A stretch of DNA of 64,000 nucleotides from an uncultured bacterium (GTDB lineage Bacteria > Cyanobacteriota > Vampirovibrionia > Gastranaerophilales > Gastranaerophilaceae). Shown in pieces: positions 2,195 through 40,445 of the stretch. Under the pieces are notes generated by a model. The model was not told the origin of the DNA and made no database searches. It worked only from the letters and a program-made list of their open reading frames with translations. The DNA lies in contig CASEDF010000006.1 of assembly GCA_949286705.1 (NCBI GenBank), positions 181,809 to 245,808 of the forward strand, read 5' to 3'. Positions within the stretch are counted from its first letter, which is position 1. The number at the start of each line of letters is the position of its first letter. The translations under genes were made by a program, and so were the position numbers.

Positions 2195-2218
2195 ACAATT
2201 ATCAATTGTTTTTTTTTT
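2195..2218 (-). terminator. Hairpin plus T-run following the 5' tRNA fragment
   Basis: acaatt-atc-aattgt stem flanked by A6 and T9-10 runs. Confidence 0.5.
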
Positions 2219-7206: not shown

Positions 7207-8136
7207 TTACTTTTCATTCAAGTATTTATAACTGCAACATGCTCCGGAAAGTTGTCTTCCTGTCAACAAATCGCCTGAGCCTAAAAATCCTTGCGCCTTT
7301 TCTATACCATATTCTTTACCGCATCCACAAGTTTCACCGTTAACATTTTTATTAAATGTTCCGTCTGCCCCGATTGGTCTTATCCAATTTTCATTCAGCA
7401 TAATGGCAAACATATCCCGCCCTACTACATTCGGTCCTTTTTGAAAACCGTTTACATCCACCGCTATTATAGGTGCACCATGCCCGCCAAAATATATTAC
7501 GGAACCGTCTTGCAATAAGATTGCTTTTTTAGATAAATCCCAGCCCGTATATAAACCGTTAAGCTGCGCATTATTACAACTTGATGAGCTCGTCGGTAAA
7601 TTTTTAAACGTACCGGAAATTAAAGATCCGTAAAAGCTGTATGCAGCAGCTCCACCGCAAAGCCCATTCCACTTGTCTAAATAATTATTGCAATATGCAC
7701 TCTCACCATATTGAGGAAATCCGCAGGTATCTATCACTTTGAAATGTTTTACCATAGCATTGACAAATTCCGGTGACATAGTAGTTCTCACTGCATAAAG
7801 CCCGTCATCAGGATATCTGCACTTTGCAGGCACATTATAATCCCCTGAATTGTTTACGCACAAACTATAATTATCAAGCTTTACGGCAGTGTATACCTGA
7901 CTAATTTCCGAAAATTTCTTTTTCCATATTGCTTTATTCTGCATATCACCAATTTTTTGAGATAAAGTAGGAATAGTCATTGCTGCGACAATGCCGATTA
8001 TGCCGAGGGTTATCAGAACTTCTGCCAGAGTAAACGCAGCTTTCTTTTTAAGGTCGTTAAGACGATAAGACTTTTGGACGTTAAGTTCTTTACTGAGGAC
8101 TTCGCTCACGTTTTTACTTTCCGAATTATAATTCAT
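7207..8136 (-). CDS. Type IV pilin-like protein A (prepilin-type N-terminal cleavage/methylation domain)
   Basis: AAFTLAEVLITLGIIGIVAAMTIP class III signal motif (F+1, E+5). C-terminal DVNG..GPN..GRDMF motif shared with paralogs. Start placed at ATG 8136 just after a consensus promoter. The frame stays open upstream to 8442 and beyond (see findings). Confidence 0.75.
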   Translation of the reverse strand: MNYNSESKNVSEVLSKELNVQKSYRLNDLKKKAAFTLAEVLITLGIIGIVAAMTIPTLSQKIGDMQNKAIWKKKFSEISQVYTAVKLDNYSLCVNNSGDYNVPAKCRYPDDGLYAVRTTMSPEFVNAMVKHFKVIDTCGFPQYGESAYCNNYLDKWNGLCGGAAAYSFYGSLISGTFKNLPTSSSSCNNAQLNGLYTGWDLSKKAILLQDGSVIYFGGHGAPIIAVDVNGFQKGPNVVGRDMFAIMLNENWIRPIGADGTFNKNVNGETCGCGKEYGIEKAQGFLGSGDLLTGRQLSGACCSYKYLNEK

Positions 8137-8145
8137 TATATTAGA

Positions 8146-8174
8146 ATTATAATTTGTTTCAGAGGGTGTGTCAA
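8146..8174 (-). promoter_or_regulatory. Perfect sigma-70 consensus promoter, 9 nt upstream of pilin A ATG
   Basis: Minus strand reads TTGACA (8174..8169) - 17 nt - TATAAT (8151..8146). No SD before the ATG. Confidence 0.65.
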
Positions 8175-8455
8175 TTCGTTTTGTAACTTTGTGATTGGGG
8201 TTACTAACCCGACTGTTAATTTTTCTGTCGGCATAGTAATGCCGACCTACATTTCCAAACCACCCCGGGATGACCTGCAAAGTTCCGCAAAAACCTAATA
8301 TGGTGTCGTGCCTCAGGCACTTCAGGATGGCAGACTCCATCCGAACATAACTATGTTGGGCCGTATTACTATGACGAATGTTACTTCTTAGTGCCTTAGT
8401 GCCATAGTATCTTAGTAACTTTTTCCAAACAATACCGCCCAAACCCTTGTTTACT

Positions 8456-8560
8456 TCATGTGCCGTTAAATTTTCTACAACTTCCCGTTGGTCGGGTCCA
8501 ACGGCTACGCTGGCTGGGAGAGTCGCCCCCCCCGAAATTCGAAAATATTTCTTTTCTCAT
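8456..8560 (-). other. SD-led mini-ORF containing a G8 tract (MRKEIFSNFGGG...)
   Basis: AAGGAGA, then 8 nt, then ATG (8560..8558). G8 occupies codons 10-12. Stop TGA at 8458..8456 in the present register. Confidence 0.5.
8526..8533 (-). repeat. Homopolymer G8 (C8 on plus strand)
   Basis: Counted directly: agtcg-cccccccc-gaaattc. Confidence 0.95.
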
Positions 8561-8587
8561 ATGCCATTCTCCTTCTTTTATGATTTT

Positions 8588-8596
8588 ATTATAACA
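8588..8596 (-). promoter_or_regulatory. Distal extended -10 promoter (TGTTATAAT) for the mini-ORF leader
   Basis: Minus strand tgt-tataat lies ~25 nt upstream of the SD. The paralogous position in locus B carries tga-tataat. Confidence 0.35.
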
Positions 8597-8690
8597 TAAA
8601 TCTACACCACATTAATGATATTTTAATTAATTCCTCTTTTAGTTGATCCAGCTGAATTGTATAGAAGATATACAAGAAAACATGCCTTAT

Positions 8691-8779
8691 ACATTTATTG
8701 TTAAAGAAATTGAAGGCGCACGAATTACTAAACTTGAAATTATAAAAAAACTCCCGCTGCAGAACAGGTGCAAGAGTAA
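8691..8779 (+). pseudogene. Duplicated, frameshifted 3' fragment of the corC-like gene
   Basis: 89 nt nearly identical to 7113-7205 (TFIVKEIEGARITKLEIIK). A 4-nt deletion breaks the frame. ORF 8643..8849 is an artefact of this fragment. Confidence 0.85.
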
Positions 8780-8781
8780 CA

Positions 8782-9462
8782 TTAAAAACCAAAGGGGTAA
8801 TCTTCGGGAATTTTCCAATTATTTTTTGCGATTAATGCTGCACATGTAAGATGCCTGTTTCCGACACATTTTTCCATAAGCTGCTCATCTGTAGCGGTAT
8901 CATTATAATGCATTCCATAAGGAACAACCCCGCTATTGAAATTATATGCATGCAAGACAAATACAAATATATTTTTGCCATATTCATCAGATATAGCAAT
9001 ATCTTCAGGATTACCGGATCCCATAGCCGGATAATTTTTATAATACTTTTTTGTGTTGTAAATATAATAGAAATATCTTCCATAGCTAAACACAGCCATA
9101 TCACCTGATTGAAAATATATTCCGACTGTCAGATTTGAATCAACATGTTTGTTATCTGCAGGATTATAATAACCACACTCGTAATCTGTTGTTTTCAGAT
9201 ATGGTGCCAAATATTGCTCATAAAAACCACACGAATCATATCCGTAATCTTTCCAAAATCGTCTTTCGCCATTTTCAATTTCTGACAATTTTATCGCCTG
9301 ATTAATTGTGGAATAAAACCTTGCCATACCGCTTTCAAGCACTTTCTTTTTATAATTCGAAATTAAATTCGGTATTGTCAATGCCGCAACTATACCGATT
9401 ATTGCAAGGGTTATTAATACCTCGGCAAGTGTAAATGCTCTTTTCATACTATAGTTTGCCAT
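8782..9462 (-). CDS. Type IV pilin-like protein B
   Basis: 226 aa starting MANYSMKR-AFTLAEVLITLAIIGIVAALTIP. ATG lies 6 nt after a consensus -10. Confidence 0.8.
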   Translation of the reverse strand: MANYSMKRAFTLAEVLITLAIIGIVAALTIPNLISNYKKKVLESGMARFYSTINQAIKLSEIENGERRFWKDYGYDSCGFYEQYLAPYLKTTDYECGYYNPADNKHVDSNLTVGIYFQSGDMAVFSYGRYFYYIYNTKKYYKNYPAMGSGNPEDIAISDEYGKNIFVFVLHAYNFNSGVVPYGMHYNDTATDEQLMEKCVGNRHLTCAALIAKNNWKIPEDYPFGF

Positions 9463-9468
9463 ATTGAA

Positions 9469-9497
9469 ATTATAGTTTATTCCGACAATACTGTCAA
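9469..9497 (-). promoter_or_regulatory. Perfect sigma-70 consensus promoter, 6 nt upstream of pilin B ATG (leaderless mRNA predicted)
   Basis: Minus strand reads TTGACA (9497..9492) - 17 nt - TATAAT (9474..9469) - ttcaat - ATG (9462). Confidence 0.65.
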
Positions 9498-9515
9498 ATA
9501 GTACTCTATGATTAC

Positions 9516-9563
9516 TTAGAGGAGTCGCCCCCCCCCGAAATTTGAAAATATTTCTTTTCCCAT
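9516..9563 (-). other. SD-led mini-ORF containing a G9 tract (MGKEIFSNFGGGRLL*)
   Basis: AAGGAGA, then 8 nt, then ATG (9563..9561), then G9, then stop TAA at 9518..9516. Confidence 0.5.
9528..9536 (-). repeat. Homopolymer G9 (C9 on plus strand)
   Basis: Counted directly: gagtcg-ccccccccc-gaaattt. Confidence 0.95.
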
Positions 9564-9709
9564 ATGCGATTCTCCTTCTTTTATAAATTTATTATATCAC
9601 AAATCTACATCACTTTAATGATATTTTAATTAATTCCTCTTTTTAGTTGATGTAGCCAAGGCTATATTGTATAGAATAGAAATATATTAAACAATATTTG
9701 GGCGGATTA

Positions 9710-10537
9710 ATGAGTCAAGATTTCGATTTTACATCGTATAATAACATTAAGCGTTTATCGGAAGAAGAACTTACGGCACTTTGGGGGAAATACCTTGCCG
9801 ACAAAAGTGACAAAGCTTCACGAGATGCTTTAATTGTGCAATATATTTATTTAATCCGTTATGTCGTAGGCAGAGTCAGAGTAACGCTGCCCGCAACGAT
9901 TTCCATTGAAGATATAGCAGGCTACGGGGTGGAAGGACTTATAAACGCAATCGAAAGATACTCCCCGCAAAAAAATACCAGATTTGAAACTTATGCACTT
10001 ATCAGAATCAGAGGAGCAATCCTTGACAAAATTCGTTCACAGGATTTTCTTCCCAGAAGCGTAAGACAAAAAATTAAAACCGTTAAAGAAGCTCAGGAAT
10101 CTTTAAAACAGGAACTCGGCCGCATGCCGACCACAACCGAAATTGCAAACAAAATTGACATGGATCCCGAAAAAGTAAATCAACTTTTGTCGGAAGACGT
10201 TACAATTACATCTTTGTATGATAAAAAAGGTAACGCTGAAGACAGTGTGGAAATTATAGACACAATTCAGGATACAAACAAACTTAACCCGCAGGAAAAT
10301 GCCGAAGAAAATAATGTAAAACAGGAATTGGAGAGGGCTTTAATGAGATTACCGGAAAGAGAACGAATTATAATGGTTCTTTACTATCAGGAAAACATGA
10401 CACTTAAAGAGATCGGTGAAACCATCAGTATGTCAGAGTCCCGCGTATGCCAGTTGCATGCTCAAGCAATTATGAAATTAAAAAATATTCTCAGCGAAAA
10501 CCGTTCAAACCGCTTGCGCCAGTCAATTGTTGCTTAA
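9710..10537 (+). CDS. fliA: Flagellar sigma factor FliA/WhiG (sigma-28)
   Basis: Sigma-70 family regions 2-4 (YIYLIRYVVGRV, FETYALIRIRGAILD, LKEIGETISMSESRVCQLHAQA). Size fits the group 3 flagellar sigma. ATG at 9710 is inside ORF 9698..10537. Confidence 0.85.
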   Translation: MSQDFDFTSYNNIKRLSEEELTALWGKYLADKSDKASRDALIVQYIYLIRYVVGRVRVTLPATISIEDIAGYGVEGLINAIERYSPQKNTRFETYALIRIRGAILDKIRSQDFLPRSVRQKIKTVKEAQESLKQELGRMPTTTEIANKIDMDPEKVNQLLSEDVTITSLYDKKGNAEDSVEIIDTIQDTNKLNPQENAEENNVKQELERALMRLPERERIIMVLYYQENMTLKEIGETISMSESRVCQLHAQAIMKLKNILSENRSNRLRQSIVA

Positions 10538-27625: not shown

Positions 27626-29087
27626 AGAACTTATTGAATATCTTGATTATAAAGACCTTGTAAATTTCAAAAGCGTTGAAGTCAGCGGAATTTCGTATAA
27701 TTCCCAGACAACAAAAAAAGGCGACATTTTTATATGTCTTGCTGGTGAACATACAGACGGTCACGAATATGCGCAAATGGCAATTGATAACGGTGCCGTT
27801 GCACTTCTTGTCGAAAGACCGCTGGATATCAAAATTCCGCAGGTAGTTGTATCTAATACCCGCCACAAAATTGCGGATATTGCTGACAGGTTCTATTCAA
27901 GACCCTCTTTAGGCTTAAATTTAATCGGTATTACCGGAACAAACGGAAAAACAACCGTAACTCATTTAATCCAGCGTATTTTTGAGGAAAATAATCAAAA
28001 ATGTGCACTTATCGGTACTTTAGGATACAAATTATCCTCAAACGGAGAATACCGTGACGCAAAACACACAACACCTCAGGCACCCGAATTACAGGCCACA
28101 TTGAGAATGATTAAGGATGTTGAAAAAATTGATAATGTTGTGATGGAAGTAAGTTCCCACGCGCTTGAACAAAATAGAGTCGGCGGCTGCAGATTTGACG
28201 GAGCAGTGTTTACAAACCTGACACAGGATCATCTGGATTACCATATTACAATGGAAAATTATTTCAACGCAAAGGCAATTTTATTCAAAAACCTTAAGGA
28301 AGGCTGTTTTGCAGTTATAAACATTGATGACGCATACGGCGAAAGATTTTTAAACGTTGTGCCTGAAGGAGTCAGAAAATACACCTACGGTGTAAAAAAT
28401 ACAGCGGATGTTATGGCAAAGGATATTGAATTTTCTTTAAACGGTGCTGAATTTACACTTGTGACAAAAGACGGTGAATACAAAGTCAGCCTTCACATGA
28501 ACGGTATGTTCAGCGTTTATAACGTACTTGCAGCTATTACAACGGCAATTGCTCAAGGAATTGAGATAAAAACAGCACTTAAAGCGCTGGAAAACGTAAA
28601 AGGAGTTGCCGGAAGGTTTGAAGTTGTGGCTAAAAAGCCGTTGGTAATCGTGGATTATGCACACACGCCCGACGGTTTGGAAAACGTTTTAAATTCAGCA
28701 AGAGAAATTACGCCGAAAGACGGGCATTTAATCTGTTTGTTTGGCTGCGGCGGCGACAGAGATGCCACAAAACGTCCGAAGATGGGTGCAATTGCAGAAA
28801 GAATTGCCGACAAAATAGTGATTACATCAGATAACCCAAGAAGCGAAGACCCGCAGCAAATTATAACCGATATAATCGCGGGTTTAAAATCAACAGATCC
28901 TGAAAAAGTTACGGTAGAACCCGACAGAGGCCGTGCAATCGAATTGTTGAAAACGATTTCAGGTAATAATGATGTTATAGTTATTGCAGGAAAAGGTCAC
29001 GAGGATTATCAAATCTTAAAAGACAGAACAATCCATTTTGATGACCGTGAAGAAGCACGAAAAGTTTTTGAAGGAACAGCAGTTTAA
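27615..29087 (+). CDS. murE: UDP-MurNAc-L-Ala-D-Glu:meso-DAP ligase
   Basis: 490 aa with GITGTNGKTT P-loop and the DNPR motif (ITSDNPRSEDP) typical of DAP-adding MurE. Confidence 0.95.
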   Translation: MKLEELIEYLDYKDLVNFKSVEVSGISYNSQTTKKGDIFICLAGEHTDGHEYAQMAIDNGAVALLVERPLDIKIPQVVVSNTRHKIADIADRFYSRPSLGLNLIGITGTNGKTTVTHLIQRIFEENNQKCALIGTLGYKLSSNGEYRDAKHTTPQAPELQATLRMIKDVEKIDNVVMEVSSHALEQNRVGGCRFDGAVFTNLTQDHLDYHITMENYFNAKAILFKNLKEGCFAVINIDDAYGERFLNVVPEGVRKYTYGVKNTADVMAKDIEFSLNGAEFTLVTKDGEYKVSLHMNGMFSVYNVLAAITTAIAQGIEIKTALKALENVKGVAGRFEVVAKKPLVIVDYAHTPDGLENVLNSAREITPKDGHLICLFGCGGDRDATKRPKMGAIAERIADKIVITSDNPRSEDPQQIITDIIAGLKSTDPEKVTVEPDRGRAIELLKTISGNNDVIVIAGKGHEDYQILKDRTIHFDDREEARKVFEGTAV

Positions 29088-29839
29088 TAATTCATCTTCC
29101 GTTCTTGAAAAATTCTATAAGCACAGCTGTAACCTTTTTTATCGGATTCACAGGTATTTCTTTGATCTATTCCGTTATCAAGGAAAGGTTCATTTGTATA
29201 AGGAAGAATTTTTCCGTGTCCATCTTTTTTCATATACAACCAGAACACATCCCTGCCAATTTGATTAGGTCCGCTTTTGCCGTTTACATCTATAGTAAAC
29301 AATAAATCAGGCTGTCCCCAGAAAACCCCGACATTACTTTCCTTAAAACGCAAGCCTATAACCGCGCCATCAGATAAAATAAATTGATAATTTAGGTGAA
29401 ATAGTCTACAGTTTACATGATCTGTAACACTTGTACCTGTTTCGCCGTTTAGATACTTATAGTCATAAGGATTCACATGACATTCATTTTCAATACTATC
29501 ACTGATAGGTTCACATTCGCCGATAATCTTCAATTTTTTTCTGTATAAATCCACTATACGTTCATTATCAATATTGGTGCCGTCGTTTTGATAGTAGTCA
29601 GTCCAACTCCATTGTGCAGGATCTCCTTCTTCAGCGATTATCATATTTGTAGCATTTTGTAAAACAGAATACGTTTTGAATAATCTTTCTACATATCCTC
29701 TGTTTGAAATATTCGTAACAAGTGTAGGAATGGTTATGGCTGCCACTATGCCGATAATGCCTAAAGTTATTAATACTTCGGCAAGCGTAAAAGCAATTTT
29801 AGAACTATAATTCTTCATATACGAATTATAATTTAACAT
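29084..29839 (-). CDS. Type IV pilin-like protein C
   Basis: ...KI-AFTLAEVLITLGIIGIVAAITIP, C-terminal IDVNGKSGPNQIGRDVFW. The consensus promoter at 29825-29853 implies the in-frame ATG 29818 (MKNYSSKI-AFTLAEV) is the start on the proximal transcript. Confidence 0.8.
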   Translation of the reverse strand: MLNYNSYMKNYSSKIAFTLAEVLITLGIIGIVAAITIPTLVTNISNRGYVERLFKTYSVLQNATNMIIAEEGDPAQWSWTDYYQNDGTNIDNERIVDLYRKKLKIIGECEPISDSIENECHVNPYDYKYLNGETGTSVTDHVNCRLFHLNYQFILSDGAVIGLRFKESNVGVFWGQPDLLFTIDVNGKSGPNQIGRDVFWLYMKKDGHGKILPYTNEPFLDNGIDQRNTCESDKKGYSCAYRIFQERKMNY

Positions 29840-29853
29840 TTTTATCTTGTCAA
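29825..29853 (-). promoter_or_regulatory. Perfect sigma-70 consensus promoter, 6 nt upstream of ATG 29818
   Basis: Minus strand reads TTGACA (29853..29848) - 17 nt - TATAAT (29830..29825) - tcgtat - ATG. Confidence 0.65.
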
Positions 29854-29901
29854 ACTCTCCGCAGGCAAACAGCGCACCCCCAAAAGCCTTACTATATCTA
29901 C

Positions 29902-29949
29902 TTAGAAAGGTCGCCCCCCCCCGTTATTCATATCTTCAACATACGCCAT
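29902..29949 (-). other. SD-led mini-ORF containing a G9 tract (MAYVEDMNNGGGRPF*)
   Basis: GGAGG, then 6 nt, then ATG (29949..29947), then G9, then stop TAA at 29904..29902. Confidence 0.5.
29914..29922 (-). repeat. Homopolymer G9 (C9 on plus strand)
   Basis: Counted directly: aggtcg-ccccccccc-gttattc. Confidence 0.95.
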
Positions 29950-29972
29950 AGCTTTCCTCCGTCTTTTTAAGT

Positions 29973-30001
29973 ATTATAACAGTATTTCAAATTTTTTGCA
30001 A
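29973..30001 (-). promoter_or_regulatory. Distal promoter TTGCAA-N17-TATAAT for the mini-ORF leader
   Basis: Minus strand reads ttgcaa aaaatttgaaatactgt tataat, 12 nt upstream of GGAGG. Confidence 0.5.
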
Positions 30002-30030
30002 CATAATAGTATTTGGAATATAATAGACTT

Positions 30031-30939
30031 ATGAAAACGAAACTAATAATTGAACAGCATTTTCATGGTGCTTTTGGAGTAAATTTTAATGACTGCACGG
30101 TAGACGATATTTTGTATTTATCAAAAGAGATTACAAAATACGGAATTGGCGGGATTTTCCCGACGCTTGCGACTGACACGGTTGAAAACATTAAAAATCA
30201 GATTAATAAAATCAAACAGGCTGCTGAAATACAGACATCAGGAATGGCAAAAATTTTCGGCATTCATCTGGAGGGTATTTTTCTTAACCCCGAAAAAAAA
30301 GGCATACATGACGAAAAATTATTCTTAAAACCCACAATTGAAAACTATAAGCTGATTGAAGATGATTTTATAAAAATTCTCACCTATGCGCCTGAATTTG
30401 ACGAAAATTTTGCACTTGCGAAGTACTTATTGACAAAAGACGTAAAAATTCAAGCCGGACACTGCACCGGCGGTGATTTGTCATACTGCGACGGAGCAAC
30501 ACATCTTTTCAATGCTATGTCGGGAATTGTACAAAGAGGAACGTCAACGGCACTCACGGCTTTAACCGACGACAGCATTTATACGGAAATTATCGCAGAC
30601 GGAGTACATATTTCGGATTCGATTATAAGGCTTATCTTCAAGGCAAAACCTATTGACAAAATTCTTTTAATATCAGACTGCCTGCCGATTACAAAAAGCA
30701 ATTTAAAAGAAATGGAATTTGAGGGTGAAACCATTTATTTTGACGGCGAAAAAGCAACATCAAAAGACGGCACGCTTGCGGGAAGCACAAAACTTTTACC
30801 TGATATAATAAAGCGGCTCGGGCTTATGGGGCTTTTTACCCCGCAATTAATTGAAAATATTTACGCTTATCACAATATAGATTTGACAGGCGGAATTGAA
30901 TGGGACGAACATTTTAATATTGTGAAAGTGAATTTATAA
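30031..30939 (+). CDS. N-acetylglucosamine-6-phosphate deacetylase-like amidohydrolase
   Basis: EQHFHGAFG (HxH), [31 protein letters not shown]. Shorter than a typical NagA. ATG 30031 lies inside ORF 30013..30939. Confidence 0.6.
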
Positions 30940-34160: not shown

Positions 34161-35222
34161 TTGATAAAGAAAAAGGGTTTTACTTTAGCAGAAGTTTTAA
34201 TTACGCTGGCAATTATCGGTGTTGTTGCGGCTATGACCATTCCGACATTAATTCAAAATTATCAGAAACACGCTTGGAATACAGCCTCTATGGTCTTTCA
34301 ACGAAAACTCGGCGATGCTTTAACAGTTATGAATTCTCAAGGTACTCTTGCAGGATATTCGTCTACTGAAGATTTCGTTGCTGAATTAGCAAAACATATG
34401 AAAATTTCCAAAATCTGCCGGAATAATGACCTTATGTCCTGTTTTTCCGATAAAGTATTCTGGGGTACTGAAAATGAAGAAATTGATATGACTAAAGTTA
34501 AAACCGTTAAAGACTTTGGAAGAGATGATTGGGAAGATACCGACATTATAGGCACTATGTTTGCTGACGGTACTACCGGACTTATTGCATATAACAAAGG
34601 CTGCAGGCAGGATCCTTATAGTAACAGAGTTATTACGACATCAAAAGAGGGTATCGGTACTGATTGTTTAGCTATTCTATATGATACCACAGGGTTTAAA
34701 ACTCCTAATACGCAGCAAGAAGATTTGAGAGGGTTAAATATTAAAAGTCTTGGGGGCAGCAGCTGTGCATTTGAAATTAACGGGATTTGTTTTACGGCGC
34801 CTTTTACGCCTGCTCCAATCACTATAGCCGAGTGCGAAAAACTTAAAGACGAGCTCCAAATACAAGAATGCCACTATGATGATGACTATTGGGCGGGAGC
34901 AGTCAAAACATGTGGAGGGGTAAATAAAATGCCAACTATGGCACAAATAGCTGAAATTGCTAATTATATATTTAACACATCTGATATTGGCGCCTATACA
35001 GATAAAATTAATAATGTAACACTTGATTATAATAAAGCTGCTGATCTGGGATTCACAGTTACACAAAATTCATCCTTTCTCATCTGGTCAAATGAAGAAA
35101 CTACGAATGATCCAGATGGATTAGGCTTAGCTTCTTCACGTGATTTTTATCCAACAGAAACAATGTGGAACAATGGAGCTCGTTTTTTTGACGCTCCGCA
35201 GGCAGTTTGCCTTGGTGATTAA
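34161..35222 (+). CDS. Type IV pilin-like protein D
   Basis: 353 aa starting (TTG)IKKKG-FTLAEVLITLAIIGVVAAMTIP, a classical short basic leader with Gly at -1. The start codon is uncertain (see findings). Confidence 0.75.
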   Translation: MIKKKGFTLAEVLITLAIIGVVAAMTIPTLIQNYQKHAWNTASMVFQRKLGDALTVMNSQGTLAGYSSTEDFVAELAKHMKISKICRNNDLMSCFSDKVFWGTENEEIDMTKVKTVKDFGRDDWEDTDIIGTMFADGTTGLIAYNKGCRQDPYSNRVITTSKEGIGTDCLAILYDTTGFKTPNTQQEDLRGLNIKSLGGSSCAFEINGICFTAPFTPAPITIAECEKLKDELQIQECHYDDDYWAGAVKTCGGVNKMPTMAQIAEIANYIFNTSDIGAYTDKINNVTLDYNKAADLGFTVTQNSSFLIWSNEETTNDPDGLGLASSRDFYPTETMWNNGARFFDAPQAVCLGD

Positions 35223-38572: not shown

Positions 38573-39208
38573 AAATTGATTTTCAACATCTGTAGGGATA
38601 TCTCTATACCAAGCAATATCTTTTCTGATAATTTTAGCTGGAGTTCCGGCATATATTGCATCTGAAATAGCACAATCTTTATTAACCAAACTTTTAGACG
38701 CAATTACAACATTATCTGCTATATGAACACCTTTATATACATTAACATCTTTTGCAAGCCAAACATGATTACCAATTTTTATACTCTTGCCTAAATTTAC
38801 GACCCCGCCCGTATGTTTATCAATTATCGCATGCGAATCCGTTGTTCTGATCTGAACTCTATTTGCAGTCATCACATCTTCACCTATGTCAATTGATAGA
38901 TTTGGTTCTTTAGATAACAATAAAATAACACCTACACATGAAAAATTTTTTCCGATGCATAATTTACTATTATCAGCCTGAGCTTCAATTCTTAAACCAC
39001 TCAGCTTATATGTTGAACTTTGAATTTCAATATTACAATTTGAACCTATTATCATTTTTGAACGTCTGAACTTTAAAGGCTGATGCAAAATAACAGTAGA
39101 ATTTTTCCCCAGGAATTTAATTCGACATCCTTTTATTCCTCTCAAACTGAATACTCTTTTCTTTTTACCTTTTTGATTTATTATATATATTTTATTTCCT
39201 TTAAACAT
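38555..39208 (-). CDS. Hexapeptide-repeat (left-handed beta-helix) acetyltransferase
   Basis: 217 aa with IGNHVWLAKDVNVYKGVHIADNVVIASKSLV hexapeptide repeats. Confidence 0.75.
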   Translation of the reverse strand: MFKGNKIYIINQKGKKKRVFSLRGIKGCRIKFLGKNSTVILHQPLKFRRSKMIIGSNCNIEIQSSTYKLSGLRIEAQADNSKLCIGKNFSCVGVILLLSKEPNLSIDIGEDVMTANRVQIRTTDSHAIIDKHTGGVVNLGKSIKIGNHVWLAKDVNVYKGVHIADNVVIASKSLVNKDCAISDAIYAGTPAKIIRKDIAWYRDIPTDVENQFLYSDD

Positions 39209-40445
39209 TTATAATCTTCTCCAATAAATCAACAACTTTTTCCGATGCATGACCATTTTCAATACATCTTTTATTTTCTAAAAATTCTTCAACTTTATCT
39301 TTATATTCTTTCTCGTCAAAATTCAAAATATTTTTATTTAACGTATCATTATCAACAGCTATAGGAAATGGTGTTGACTCAAGAGGATAATAAAATCCCG
39401 GATTGATCTCGTACTCTTTTAAATCCTTTGCAAAAATAAAACATGGTTTTCTTGACAGCATAAAATCAAACATACAGCTTGAATAATCACTTATCATAAA
39501 ATCGCTTACCAGCATTAATTCTTGTATATCACCATATTTTGTAACATCGACTATGTTGCGGGATTTAGGTATATGCAAATTTGTCATTTCATGATGTAAT
39601 CGGGTAAATATAACAAATTTACAATTATATTTTCTTTCAAAAGTATTCAAAATATTAAGATAATCAATATCATAACAATCATTATTTTTTAAGCTACTTC
39701 TAAAAGTCGGAGCAAATAAAATTATTTTTGCACCCGGTTCTACGTTATACAATTTGAAAATTTTATTTTTAATCTCTGCTATTTGCTCGTTTGATTTAAA
39801 AAACACATCATTGCGGGGATGACCAATATGTAAAATATTTCGATTCGGGAGTCTGTGTTCAAATACCATATCATCAACATCAGAATTCGATAATAAATAA
39901 TCCACAAAAGATACATCTTTTTGTGTCAAATCAATATATTGATTTGATATATCAACAGCGCTATCCAGACCTATCTTTTTGATTCCCAAAGAGCCATGCC
40001 ATGTTTGAATATAAATCTGGTCTTTTTTCTTACACAAACCTTTTTTAACATGATAAAGCTTTGCCTGATTATCAACCCATACTTTTGCTGTTGCCAGCTC
40101 TTTTAGTGCCTTTTTACTTTTATAATCAACCAATCTTACTTGCGGAGGAAATTCAGAAAAATCAATTTCACGTGAATTCTTATCAACTAACCATACAAGC
40201 TCAAAAGAATTTCCCCCCCTGTTTAACATCTCCTCGGCGATATATTTAGGATTACATCCGTACCCGCGTTTGCCTTTGGCATTACAGAAAACAATTTTGT
40301 TATTTTGAACAGGTAAATTTTTGTAATGTTCAAAATTTTTTGTCATATCATAACAAAAATTCAACCCTAATATTGTAAAGCTTTTCTTTGTTCCTTCATT
40401 TTTTACAGAAAAAATCCAATTCAAAAAATGTTTATTTTTCATCAT
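39201..40445 (-). CDS. CDP-glycerol/ribitol glycerophosphotransferase family protein (TagB/TagF type)
   Basis: 414 aa. The layout LFAPTFR...YSSCMFDFMLSRKPCIFFAKD is typical of the Glyphos_transf domain. Confidence 0.75.
   Translation of the reverse strand: MMKNKHFLNWIFSVKNEGTKKSFTILGLNFCYDMTKNFEHYKNLPVQNNKIVFCNAKGKRGYGCNPKYIAEEMLNRGGNSFELVWLVDKNSREIDFSEFPPQVRLVDYKSKKALKELATAKVWVDNQAKLYHVKKGLCKKKDQIYIQTWHGSLGIKKIGLDSAVDISNQYIDLTQKDVSFVDYLLSNSDVDDMVFEHRLPNRNILHIGHPRNDVFFKSNEQIAEIKNKIFKLYNVEPGAKIILFAPTFRSSLKNNDCYDIDYLNILNTFERKYNCKFVIFTRLHHEMTNLHIPKSRNIVDVTKYGDIQELMLVSDFMISDYSSCMFDFMLSRKPCFIFAKDLKEYEINPGFYYPLESTPFPIAVDNDTLNKNILNFDEKEYKDKVEEFLENKRCIENGHASEKVVDLLEKIINV

Follow-up and report, generated by a model that had tools for sequence, protein, structure and literature searches.

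Locus C is located on the minus strand of the window, by which we mean the whole stretch of 64,000 nucleotides that was analysed, and is formed by a prepilin-type gene (29818..29084) preceded by a short leader whose run of nine G residues (G9) lies 95 nt 5' of the gene. The elements that a sequence-only reading of this DNA had placed there, namely a distal promoter TTGCAA-N17-TATAAT (30001..29973), a GGAGG followed after 6 nt by ATG 29949, and the G9 run, were all present. The features of the locus and of the other pilin-like loci of the window are collected in Table 1.

Table 1. Features of locus C and of the remaining pilin-like loci of the window.
Feature	Position	Strand	Basis or remark
Locus C, distal promoter P1, -35 hexamer TTGCAA	29996..30001	-	consensus scan; putative function
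Locus C, distal promoter P1, extended -10 TGT TATAAT	29973..29981	-	sequence, consensus scan
Locus C, Shine-Dalgarno GGAGG, 6 nt 5' of leader ATG 29949	29956..29960	-	sequence
Locus C, leader mini-ORF at G9, MAYVEDMNNGGGRPF then stop	29902..29949	-	translation
Locus C, G9 homopolymer, proposed slippage-prone switch	29914..29922	-	pattern search, translation
Locus C, spacer free of stops in the pilin frame (ATFLSRYSKAFGGALFACGEFDKIKMLNYNSY), translated solely with the run in phase	29819..29913	-	translation
Locus C, proximal promoter P2 TTGACA-N17-TATAAT, within the read-through frame	29825..29853	-	consensus scan 12/12
Locus C, proximal ATG, 6 nt past the -10 hexamer, without SD; leaderless-type start (MKNYSSKIA↓FTLAEV)	29816..29818	-	
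Locus C, prepilin-type (type IV pilin-like) gene, 244 aa	29084..29818	-	profile scores, homologs
Locus C, prepilin cleavage/methylation motif A↓FTLAEV	29774..29794	-	motif and profile match
Locus A, leader mini-ORF MGKEIFSNFGGGRLL then stop	9516..9563	-	G9 at 9528-9536; translation
Locus A, pilin-like gene	8782..9462		fused to leader by G10 or G7
Locus B, leader start ATG 8560 and G8 run (8526-8533)	8526..8560	-	sequence, translation
Locus B, about 130 stop-free leader codons (8134-8525), then pilin-like gene (7207-8133)	7207..8525	-	
Fourth pilin-like gene, without G/C run	34161..35222	+	comparison

The mini-ORF led by the Shine-Dalgarno (SD) sequence is 15 codons long. After the leader ATG there are eight sense codons, then the G9 run, which occupies codons 10-12 as three consecutive GGG, and finally CGA CCT TTC TAA. 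By in silico translation, G9 gives a peptide of 15 aa and G10 a prepilin of 288 aa, and the earlier proposal that the G10 reading passes without a stop through the proximal promoter and into the pilin was thereby confirmed. Only G10 or G7, that is, one G more or two fewer, brings the leader ATG and the pilin into one frame; this frame is MAYVEDMNNGGGATFLSRYSKAFGGALFACGEFDKIKMLNYNSYMKNYSSKIAFTLAEV..., which enters the ORF 29084..29839 free of stops, and the joined leader-pilin reading at G10 is MAYVEDMNNGGGATFLSRYSKAFGGALFACGEFDKIKMLNYNSY-MKNYSS.... In the G9 state there is a TAA in the pilin frame directly 5' of the run, so that no in-frame distal start is hidden at this length.

In the consensus scan the putative promoter P1 matched 10 of the 12 consensus positions, with a TG extension and a 17-nt spacer, and P2 matched 12 of 12. 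The -35 hexamer of P1 was kept in 19 further contigs of the species and in a sister species, and the form TGnTATAAT was seen again 5' of leaders in related genomes. The G+C content of the genome is 36%.

The N-terminus encoded at locus C, MKNYSSKIA↓FTLAEVLITLGIIGIVAA (the arrow marks the cleavage site), carries the [G/A]-F-T-L-x-E motif followed by a hydrophobic helix, with Ala at position -1 of the cleavage site where the canonical residue is Gly. Against TIGR02532 (cutoff 16.3) the proteins of loci C, A and B and of the fourth gene scored 16.4, 27.0, 19.4 and 30.2, respectively; against Pfam N_methyl the locus C protein scored 18.6, below the cutoff of 21.2, and the other three were above it. 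Counted from the proximal start the leader peptide is short and basic, 9 aa long (MKNYSSKIA), and in the G10 long form it reaches 53 aa, which is unusually long; in-frame relatives of the short type have leaders of 17-25 aa. More than 7600 homologs of the locus C pilin were found, and those that carry a name belong to Candidatus Gastranaerophilaceae. Several longer database relatives start with M-x(5-20)-GGG and run into the pilin (P0007, P0018, P0026, P0027, P0038, P0039 and P0055), and thus the in-frame forms are called as single genes. None of the window ORFs scanned was recognised as pilus machinery.

Considering that a short SD-led ORF ends just 5' of the gene, and that it holds three consecutive GGG codons, the mini-ORF could be thought of as a regulatory uORF or attenuator, in which its translation, its peptide or stalling at GGG would control the downstream gene whatever the length of the run. 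An SD-complementary sequence found 3' of the run in many relatives would suit such a role. However, the terminator scan gave no terminator-like site in 29000-30100, the RNA fold of the C leader was not better than that of its shuffles (z = -1.29), and the mini-ORF peptides are unconserved beyond the Gly run. Rfam at the gathering threshold recovered only a tRNA in the whole window, and an E-value scan of 7900-9750 gave no match. As neither a terminator nor a significant fold nor an Rfam family was present, the attenuator or riboswitch reading of the C leader was dropped; control by a uORF would also give no reason for the absence of stops between run and pilin in the pilin frame, and we consider it very improbable.

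The window contains three G/C runs of at least 8, all on the minus strand and all in a leader 5' of a pilin-like gene. The next longest is C7 at 40213-40219, which bears out the earlier statement that there is no other run of 8 or more. It had also been claimed that these runs are non-random in AT-rich sequence, and this held: the pattern of G8 or longer gave 5 matches (3 tracts), against a mean of 0.42 in 100 dinucleotide-preserving shuffles, none of which reached 5. Two other statements had to be abandoned. Not all of the tracts are G9, as the one at locus B is G8, and locus C is not independent of loci A and B, because the three share the start context ATGGCnTATG, the run with CGAC directly after it, TCTAAGTA and the promoter layout. 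Judging from these shared elements, the locus C leader is a diverged paralogous cassette of those of A and B. The common feature that had been described as GGG followed by AT in the fused frame does exist, and amounts to no more than the run and the CGAC after it, which the loci have in common. From their well-spaced start codons, loci A, B and C are all in frame at G10 or G7. The stop-free leader of locus B has about 130 codons from the run to the proximal ATG and 190 to the cleavage site. A 390-nt insertion in it was considered as a structured RNA or a protein domain; it had no Rfam match and proved to be a mosaic of modules with 80-87% nucleotide identity to leaders in related genomes.

Run lengths in other samples and in a sister species

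The proposal that the run length decides the fusion of the mini-ORF to the pilin could be compared with natural alleles. One protein that clusters with the C pilin at 90% identity, P0123 (288 aa), has precisely the sequence expected of the fusion at G10, and in its contig, L092 (ENA ERZ16268192), the run of locus C is indeed G10. The alignment of this contig with the window covers 1969 bp at 99.1% identity and has no indel other than that in the run. It is a single short contig found via its own gene call, and its G10 could in principle be an assembly error. G9 was present in 18 other contigs, representing two leader alleles, and with the window in 19 of 20 sequences, a proportion drawn from a biased sampling in which G10 can be reached only via the long protein and G9 or G8 only via the short one. 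Sampling through the neighbouring genes added no alleles: the 302-aa neighbour had no record and one MurE contig stops before the pilin. The exact DNA pattern of the C leader gave 0 matches in JGI metagenomes.

In the spacer, the three substitutions between the window and the commonest allele are all synonymous in the fused frame (3/3), with 0 and 1 synonymous in the other two frames; across both locus C alleles the count is 4 of 7, which is only suggestive.

Heterogeneity of tract length, proposed earlier as a check, was found at two of the window loci, G9/G10 at locus C and G8/G9 at locus B. Contigs L107 and L108, from other samples, have G9 at locus B, called there as one ORF of 453 aa, in place of the G8 of the window. 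Besides the run, the 7.3-kb alignment of locus B has one indel in an intergenic stretch of A residues and two 1-nt gaps at 7587/7590 that compensate each other. Locus A, on the other hand, was G9 in 8 of 8 sequences (the window, L090, L091, L103-L106 and L107). A divergent allele of locus A has many amino-acid changes in the read-through frame and no stop, and its P2 hexamers are identical to those of the other allele while the bases between the hexamers vary. Differences of one G within the same leader or between recent paralogs were also seen elsewhere, as in L204 (G10) and L220 (G9), and within one genome L045 has an in-frame G10 and L021 has G11. In-frame alleles are on record in P0123, L045, L035, L202 and L115.

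Taking into account that long G runs are error-prone and that several related contigs end exactly at such runs, the true sequence of locus C could be G10, an ordinary ORF of 288 aa, with G9 as a homopolymer miscall. Against this, G9 was recovered in 19 independent assemblies from several projects and the sister species likewise has G9; no large housekeeping ORF is broken near the locus or among those sampled across the window; and across the family the out-of-frame state goes in both directions. A sequencing artefact seems to us extremely improbable.

The ortholog in the sister species is 76% identical in its pilin and lies in the same synteny, between MurE and the 302-aa neighbour. There the layout is distal promoter, AAAGGAGGG, ATG, MKNPRRNN, G9 and then CGACTCTCCTAG; the pilin frame is open past the run and one more G is needed to enter it, the same offset as in locus C. 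Apart from this, the leader peptides of the two species are unrelated. That G9 and a stop-free, AT-rich frame have outlasted this divergence argues for selection on the run and on the read-through, and not on the peptide. Selection on the leader as a peptide was considered and rejected, given that most of its residues differ between alleles and in the sister species while hexamers, run and frame are kept; between the run and the pilin the leader shows little amino-acid conservation.

Leaders with G/C runs across the family

Two samples were surveyed. Sample 1 comprised 80 loci in 1.29 Mb of Gastranaerophilales DNA, scanned at one genome per species, with labels that were almost all Gastranaerophilales, Melainabacteria or mis-labelled metagenome-assembled genomes. 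Sample 2 comprised 120 metagenome contigs chosen only by the presence of G8 or longer 15-45 nt before FTLAEV. The counts are uncorrected for the shared ancestry of paralogs.

In sample 1, G/C runs of 7, 8, 9, 10, 11 and 12 occurred 5, 3, 16, 43, 9 and 6 times, respectively, a non-monotonic spectrum, whereas A/T runs of lengths 7-12 fall steeply and monotonically. A G run of at least 7 was found within 900 nt upstream, on the coding strand, of 60 of 144 prepilin motifs. Conversely, 61 of the 78 G/C runs of at least 8, a count that includes coding-strand poly-C (Pro-Pro-Pro), lie in an SD-ATG leader from which the pilin frame is open to the run; poly-C runs are used in leaders like poly-G. The remaining runs of this length, outside leaders, mostly touch contig ends. 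Where at least 60 nt separate the run from the cleavage site, 35 of 43 pilin frames had no stop codon as far back as the run, and the control frames were free of stops in 1/43 and 0/43 cases (3453 codons). A set of such leaders with frame continuity, as had been anticipated, therefore exists beyond the window.

Two layouts could be distinguished. The short one, found in 19 genes, has 17-50 nt between run and cleavage site and no other ATG; of the 41 genes with the long one, 21 have no second ATG. Thus 40 of the 60 tract-bearing genes have no other ATG between run and cleavage site, so that the run lies inside an ordinary prepilin leader of 17-25 aa and a change of one G restores the leader; in spot checks in sample 2 such a change restored canonical leaders such as MKRFINFGGGGNLKAPA↓FTLAEV. 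The architecture expected from locus C was in this way found to be general as regards leader and run, but not as regards the proximal promoter, which is absent from most of the genes.

The offset between run and pilin frame was then expressed as the number of G residues needed to enter the frame. Of the 61 leaders of sample 1, 39 need one more G, 13 need one fewer and 9 are in frame; for the 139 leaders of sample 2, all on low-G+C contigs, these numbers are 93, 39 and 7. The in-frame length in the latter is 11 in 99 leaders, 10 in 21 and takes other values in the rest. The earlier rule of 1 modulo 3, by which G10 is in frame, is consequently local to the clade of the window; the general rule, as it can be read from these leaders, is frame continuity and not a particular run length. 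Among leaders with an in-frame length of 11 there were 87 with G10, 4 with G11 and 8 with G12, and among those with an in-frame length of 10 there were 2 with G9, 1 with G10 and 18 with G11. The assembly consensus is nearly always out of frame, and the favoured length is G10 or G11, whichever is not the in-frame one.

This bias bears on a second explanation, programmed recoding, in which the run would stay one G short and either stuttering of the RNA polymerase or a -1 frameshift on GGG would yield a constant low amount of the long-leader prepilin. The preponderance of leaders with the pilin in the -1 frame and the rarity of in-frame leaders in both samples speak for it, as does G9 in nearly all sequences of locus C. 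The length of the RNA:DNA hybrid also matches run lengths of 9-11, GGG is likely to be a rare codon at the G+C content of this genome, and a conserved SD-complementary motif, present in many leaders 10-14 nt past the run, could serve as the stimulator. This motif, however, is not significant at locus C, and we know of efficient transcriptional slippage in bacteria for A/T runs, not for G runs. Furthermore, the frame relation is not fixed, given the leaders that need one G fewer; run length differs between strains; and in-frame alleles exist. A fixed rule of being one G short, taken as evidence of frameshifting, is weakened by the leaders that are in frame at 10, which usually have G11 and not G9, as fits an attractor at G10-11. 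Programmed recoding is in our opinion unlikely. The out-of-frame pattern fits a mutational attractor at G10-11 together with a majority of switched-off genes at many paralogs, and is fitted worse by a fixed -1 recoding. It is also true that a skew away from the in-frame state is unlike what a freely switching neutral locus would give, and the reading as a switch needs the assumption of an off majority or of on minorities hidden by the consensus.

The proximal start and the proposed switch

A key aspect of the window loci is the second, proximal start. The layout TATAAT-N6/7-ATG opens 5 other, unrelated genes in the window, and leaderless starts look like a normal feature of this genome. Of the 41 tract genes with the long layout, 13 have a -10 hexamer 5' of an in-frame ATG, mostly at exactly 6 nt; among 66 pilin genes without a run the leaderless-type layout was seen in 3 and a normal SD-ATG start in 43. 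At loci A, B and C the second start is thus suggested as a source of pilin that would be independent of the run, because of the internal consensus promoter, the ATG spacing, the conservation between alleles and the enrichment at long-leader loci. If active, it would make the switch dispensable for expression at these three loci.

Taken to its extreme, this leads to a third explanation, in which the distal start and the run are the decaying remains of an old gene start and pilin is made only from the proximal leaderless promoter. It would agree with the perfect 12/12 promoter 6 nt 5' of the proximal ATG, with the frequency of leaderless starts in the genome, with the out-of-frame state of locus C in 19 of 20 sequences and with the poor conservation of the leader peptide. 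On the contrary, a neutral G9 would be expected to erode, and the sister species has kept the run, the SD, the ATG, the distal promoter and the stop-free frame. The same elements are kept in loci A and B, in B across the whole of its long stop-free leader, and the control frames are closed in 42/43 and 43/43 cases. Such a relic is, in our estimation, quite improbable.

We consider it likely that locus C is a contingency locus, in which SD-driven translation of the pilin is switched by slipped-strand mispairing of the poly-G run at DNA replication. The locus displays three of the features of phase variation: a 5' tract, a frame switch by one unit and a length polymorphism between strains. Its run is most likely a slippage-prone on/off switch as in Neisseria and Campylobacter. 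According to this proposal, transcripts from the distal promoter would carry the strong SD and the ATG, and ribosomes would reach the run after nine codons. At G9 they would halt three codons past the run, and at G10 reading would continue for 32 more codons across the sequence of the proximal promoter and into the prepilin. Prepilin peptidase would then remove the cytoplasmic leader, with the run and everything else 5' of A↓FTLAEV. By what is known of this peptidase, the mature pilin left after cleavage would not depend on which of the two precursors, long or short, had been made. Since the run lies inside the leader that would be removed, the extension would cost nothing.

At loci A, B and C the consensus promoter would start transcription at the proximal ATG and give a leaderless mRNA. 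This route could allow expression independent of the run, probably lower or separately regulated, and at these loci the run would behave as a volume switch and not as a strict on/off switch. Switching within a clone and its rate, the activity of the promoters, the cleavage of the leader and the nature of the selective agent are points that we infer; host immunity and pilus-specific phage would be candidates for the last. A combined scheme, in which the run is also a recoding site, was considered as well. Most leaders would be one G short, polymerase stuttering or -1 slippage would make the pilin, the SD-pairing sequence would tune it, the DNA length would set three output levels, and the leaderless start would provide a floor at the window loci. 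We hold this scheme to be doubtful, with little chance of being right.

Comparison with known systems

Slipped-strand translational phase variation is a textbook mechanism. A close parallel is found in Neisseria gonorrhoeae, whose pilC1 and pilC2 have a poly-G run near the 5' end (Jonsson et al. 1991, as cited in PMC5320596). Which frame of pilC is read depends on the number of G residues, and this number varies from strain to strain (PMC5320596, Table 2). Locus C is alike in both respects. However, pilC encodes an adhesin and assembly factor with a Sec-type signal peptide and is present in one or two copies, whereas the runs of Gastranaerophilales sit in the leaders of prepilin-type subunits, on many paralogs, and the window loci have in addition a long spacer and a second, leaderless-type start past the run.

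At a given moment the majority of the opa genes of Neisseria are switched off, and their tract is in the region of the cleaved signal peptide, so that the mature protein is unaffected. These genes are listed with CTTCT repeats in PMC5320596. They resemble the present case in being a paralog family of surface proteins whose members have a repeat tract apiece and switch independently of one another, and they differ in having pentamer repeats instead of a homopolymer, in encoding outer-membrane proteins instead of pilins and in belonging to a different phylum.

In Campylobacter jejuni the G/C runs are held in a narrow band of lengths, short runs being biased to insertion and long runs to deletion, with the attractor at G9-G10 (PMC8355987). 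Campylobacter also lacks mismatch repair. The likeness is in the many poly-G/C loci per genome and the association with the gut, and the spectrum in Gastranaerophilales peaks at G10. The targets in Campylobacter, unlike those described here, are mainly genes of glycosylation, capsule, flagellar modification and restriction, and here nearly all long runs belong to one family (61/78).

By comparison with the -1 frameshifting and slippage of dnaX and of IS transposases, the majority of leaders have a similar configuration, with the downstream ORF in the -1 frame and a homopolymer at the joint. The known bacterial cases of slippage and frameshifting have A/T-rich slippery sites and a fixed frame relation, whereas here the frame relation differs between loci and the run length varies in the DNA. 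With leaderless mRNAs the window loci share the -10 hexamer 6-7 nt before an ATG without SD; unlike in plain leaderless mRNAs, the promoter is inside a longer potential reading frame that the run opens. We know of no earlier description of a single cleavable leader that holds both a phase-variable SD-led start and a leaderless one. Our search of the literature for phase variation or homopolymer switches in pilins of Melainabacteria or Gastranaerophilales found no report. What appears to be new is the lineage, the near-exclusive association of long G/C runs with a single family of pilin-like genes, the presence of a leaderless start inside long read-through leaders, and the extreme bias of the assemblies to the out-of-frame state.

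Gastranaerophilales are uncultured, non-photosynthetic relatives of Cyanobacteria from human and animal guts, and we are aware of almost nothing on how they deal with their host. The proportion of prepilin motifs with an upstream run in sample 1 (60/144) suggests that a large share of their pilin-like genes carries a homopolymer switch. If true, type IV filament subunits would be at the centre of a phasome, and the surface fibres would probably be under strong, fluctuating selection, for which immunity, phage and attachment are candidate agents. With the run placed in a cleavable leader, and at some loci 5' of a leaderless start, expression would change and the product would not, which would be a tidy design. 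For the annotation of metagenome-assembled genomes, it follows that the pilin repertoires are mis-annotated, as gene callers split or truncate these genes. Contigs also tend to break at the runs.

Start codons of locus B and possible recombination of its leader

The leader of locus B begins at an overlapping pair of ATG codons lying in different frames. With a run of nine G, the first ATG is in frame, at only 1 nt from the Shine-Dalgarno sequence (SD), and in the two contigs from other samples that carry this length (L107 and L108) the gene callers give a protein of 453 aa. When the run is extended to ten G, it is the second, well-spaced ATG that comes into frame. Considering that each ATG is in frame at one run length, a product could be obtained from two of the three phases of the run, at different levels.

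Locus B (7207-8780) is missing in another strain, where locus A directly adjoins the CNNM gene (contig L103). Loci A and B share ~90% identity across the promoter, the SD and the mini-ORF, and the 390-nt insert in the leader of B is a mosaic whose modules are also found in the leaders of the related loci L083, L084, L036, and L032. The absence of B, its likeness to A, and the mosaic insert suggest that leaders duplicate and recombine as cassettes. The long leaders of the homologous proteins P0021, P0026, P0046, P0107, and P0110 translate to strings of the small-repeat-element type (…HPEGRARRISK…, …QNDK…, and …SPQPSPxLGEGA…), and judging by these translations the repeats appear to have been inserted with the frame kept open.

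Complementarity between the SD and the sequence downstream of the run

It was also possible to see that the 25 nt downstream of the run are complementary to the SD region of the same leader, as a family-wide trend (leaders L010-L231). In 168 leaders the mean duplex energy was -8.35 kcal/mol, in comparison with -5.62 for shuffled sequence, -5.72 for reversed sequence, and -7.55 kcal/mol for permuted partners. Downstream of the run, 77 of 126 leaders contain CTCC or CCTC, versus 3 of 126 in the codons upstream of it; the motif lies mostly 10-14 nt past the run and in a reading frame that differs among leaders, and GGAG[C] in the leader tends to co-occur with [G]CTCC after the run. Locus A has this pairing; at loci B and C it was tested and was not significant.

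Leaderless-type starts and the proximal palindrome

Five unrelated genes of the window start with TATAAT-N6/7-ATG without SD, an arrangement that points to leaderless mRNAs being common in this organism. At the proximal start of locus C, the palindrome over the -10 hexamer holds the ATG in its loop, and in other clades (related loci L049, L067, L069, L076, and L078) GTGAT-N7-ATCAC lies over the leaderless ATG. The palindrome around the proximal -10 and ATG may serve as an operator, or else form a weak hairpin in the RNA.

Features located in the window
Feature	Position	Strand	Context
ATG pair aATGgcatATG	8551-8567	-	locus B start
SD-complementary pairing	9517-9527 with 9566-9580		locus A
TATAAT-N6/7-ATG	4961	+	no SD
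TATAAT-N6/7-ATG	12448	+	no SD
TATAAT-N6/7-ATG	30031	+	no SD
TATAAT-N6/7-ATG	60411	+	no SD
TATAAT-N6/7-ATG	4923	-	no SD
A/T-only palindrome TATAATTC-N9-GAATTATA	29806-29830	-	over proximal -10 hexamer, locus C
G7	40213-40219	-	within CDP-glycerol glycerophosphotransferase gene (39201..40445)
T10	2209-2218		intergenic

Poly-C runs and contig ends

Contigs L068, L085, L026, L019, L033, and L055 terminate exactly at a G or C run, one of them with 16 C's, as would be expected if a sample contained mixed run lengths or if the run was poorly read through. At 13 loci (among them L074, L077, L078, L080, L027, L031, L037, L040, L052, and L054) the leader position of the poly-G is occupied by a run of 9-12 C on the coding strand, encoding Pro-Pro-Pro.
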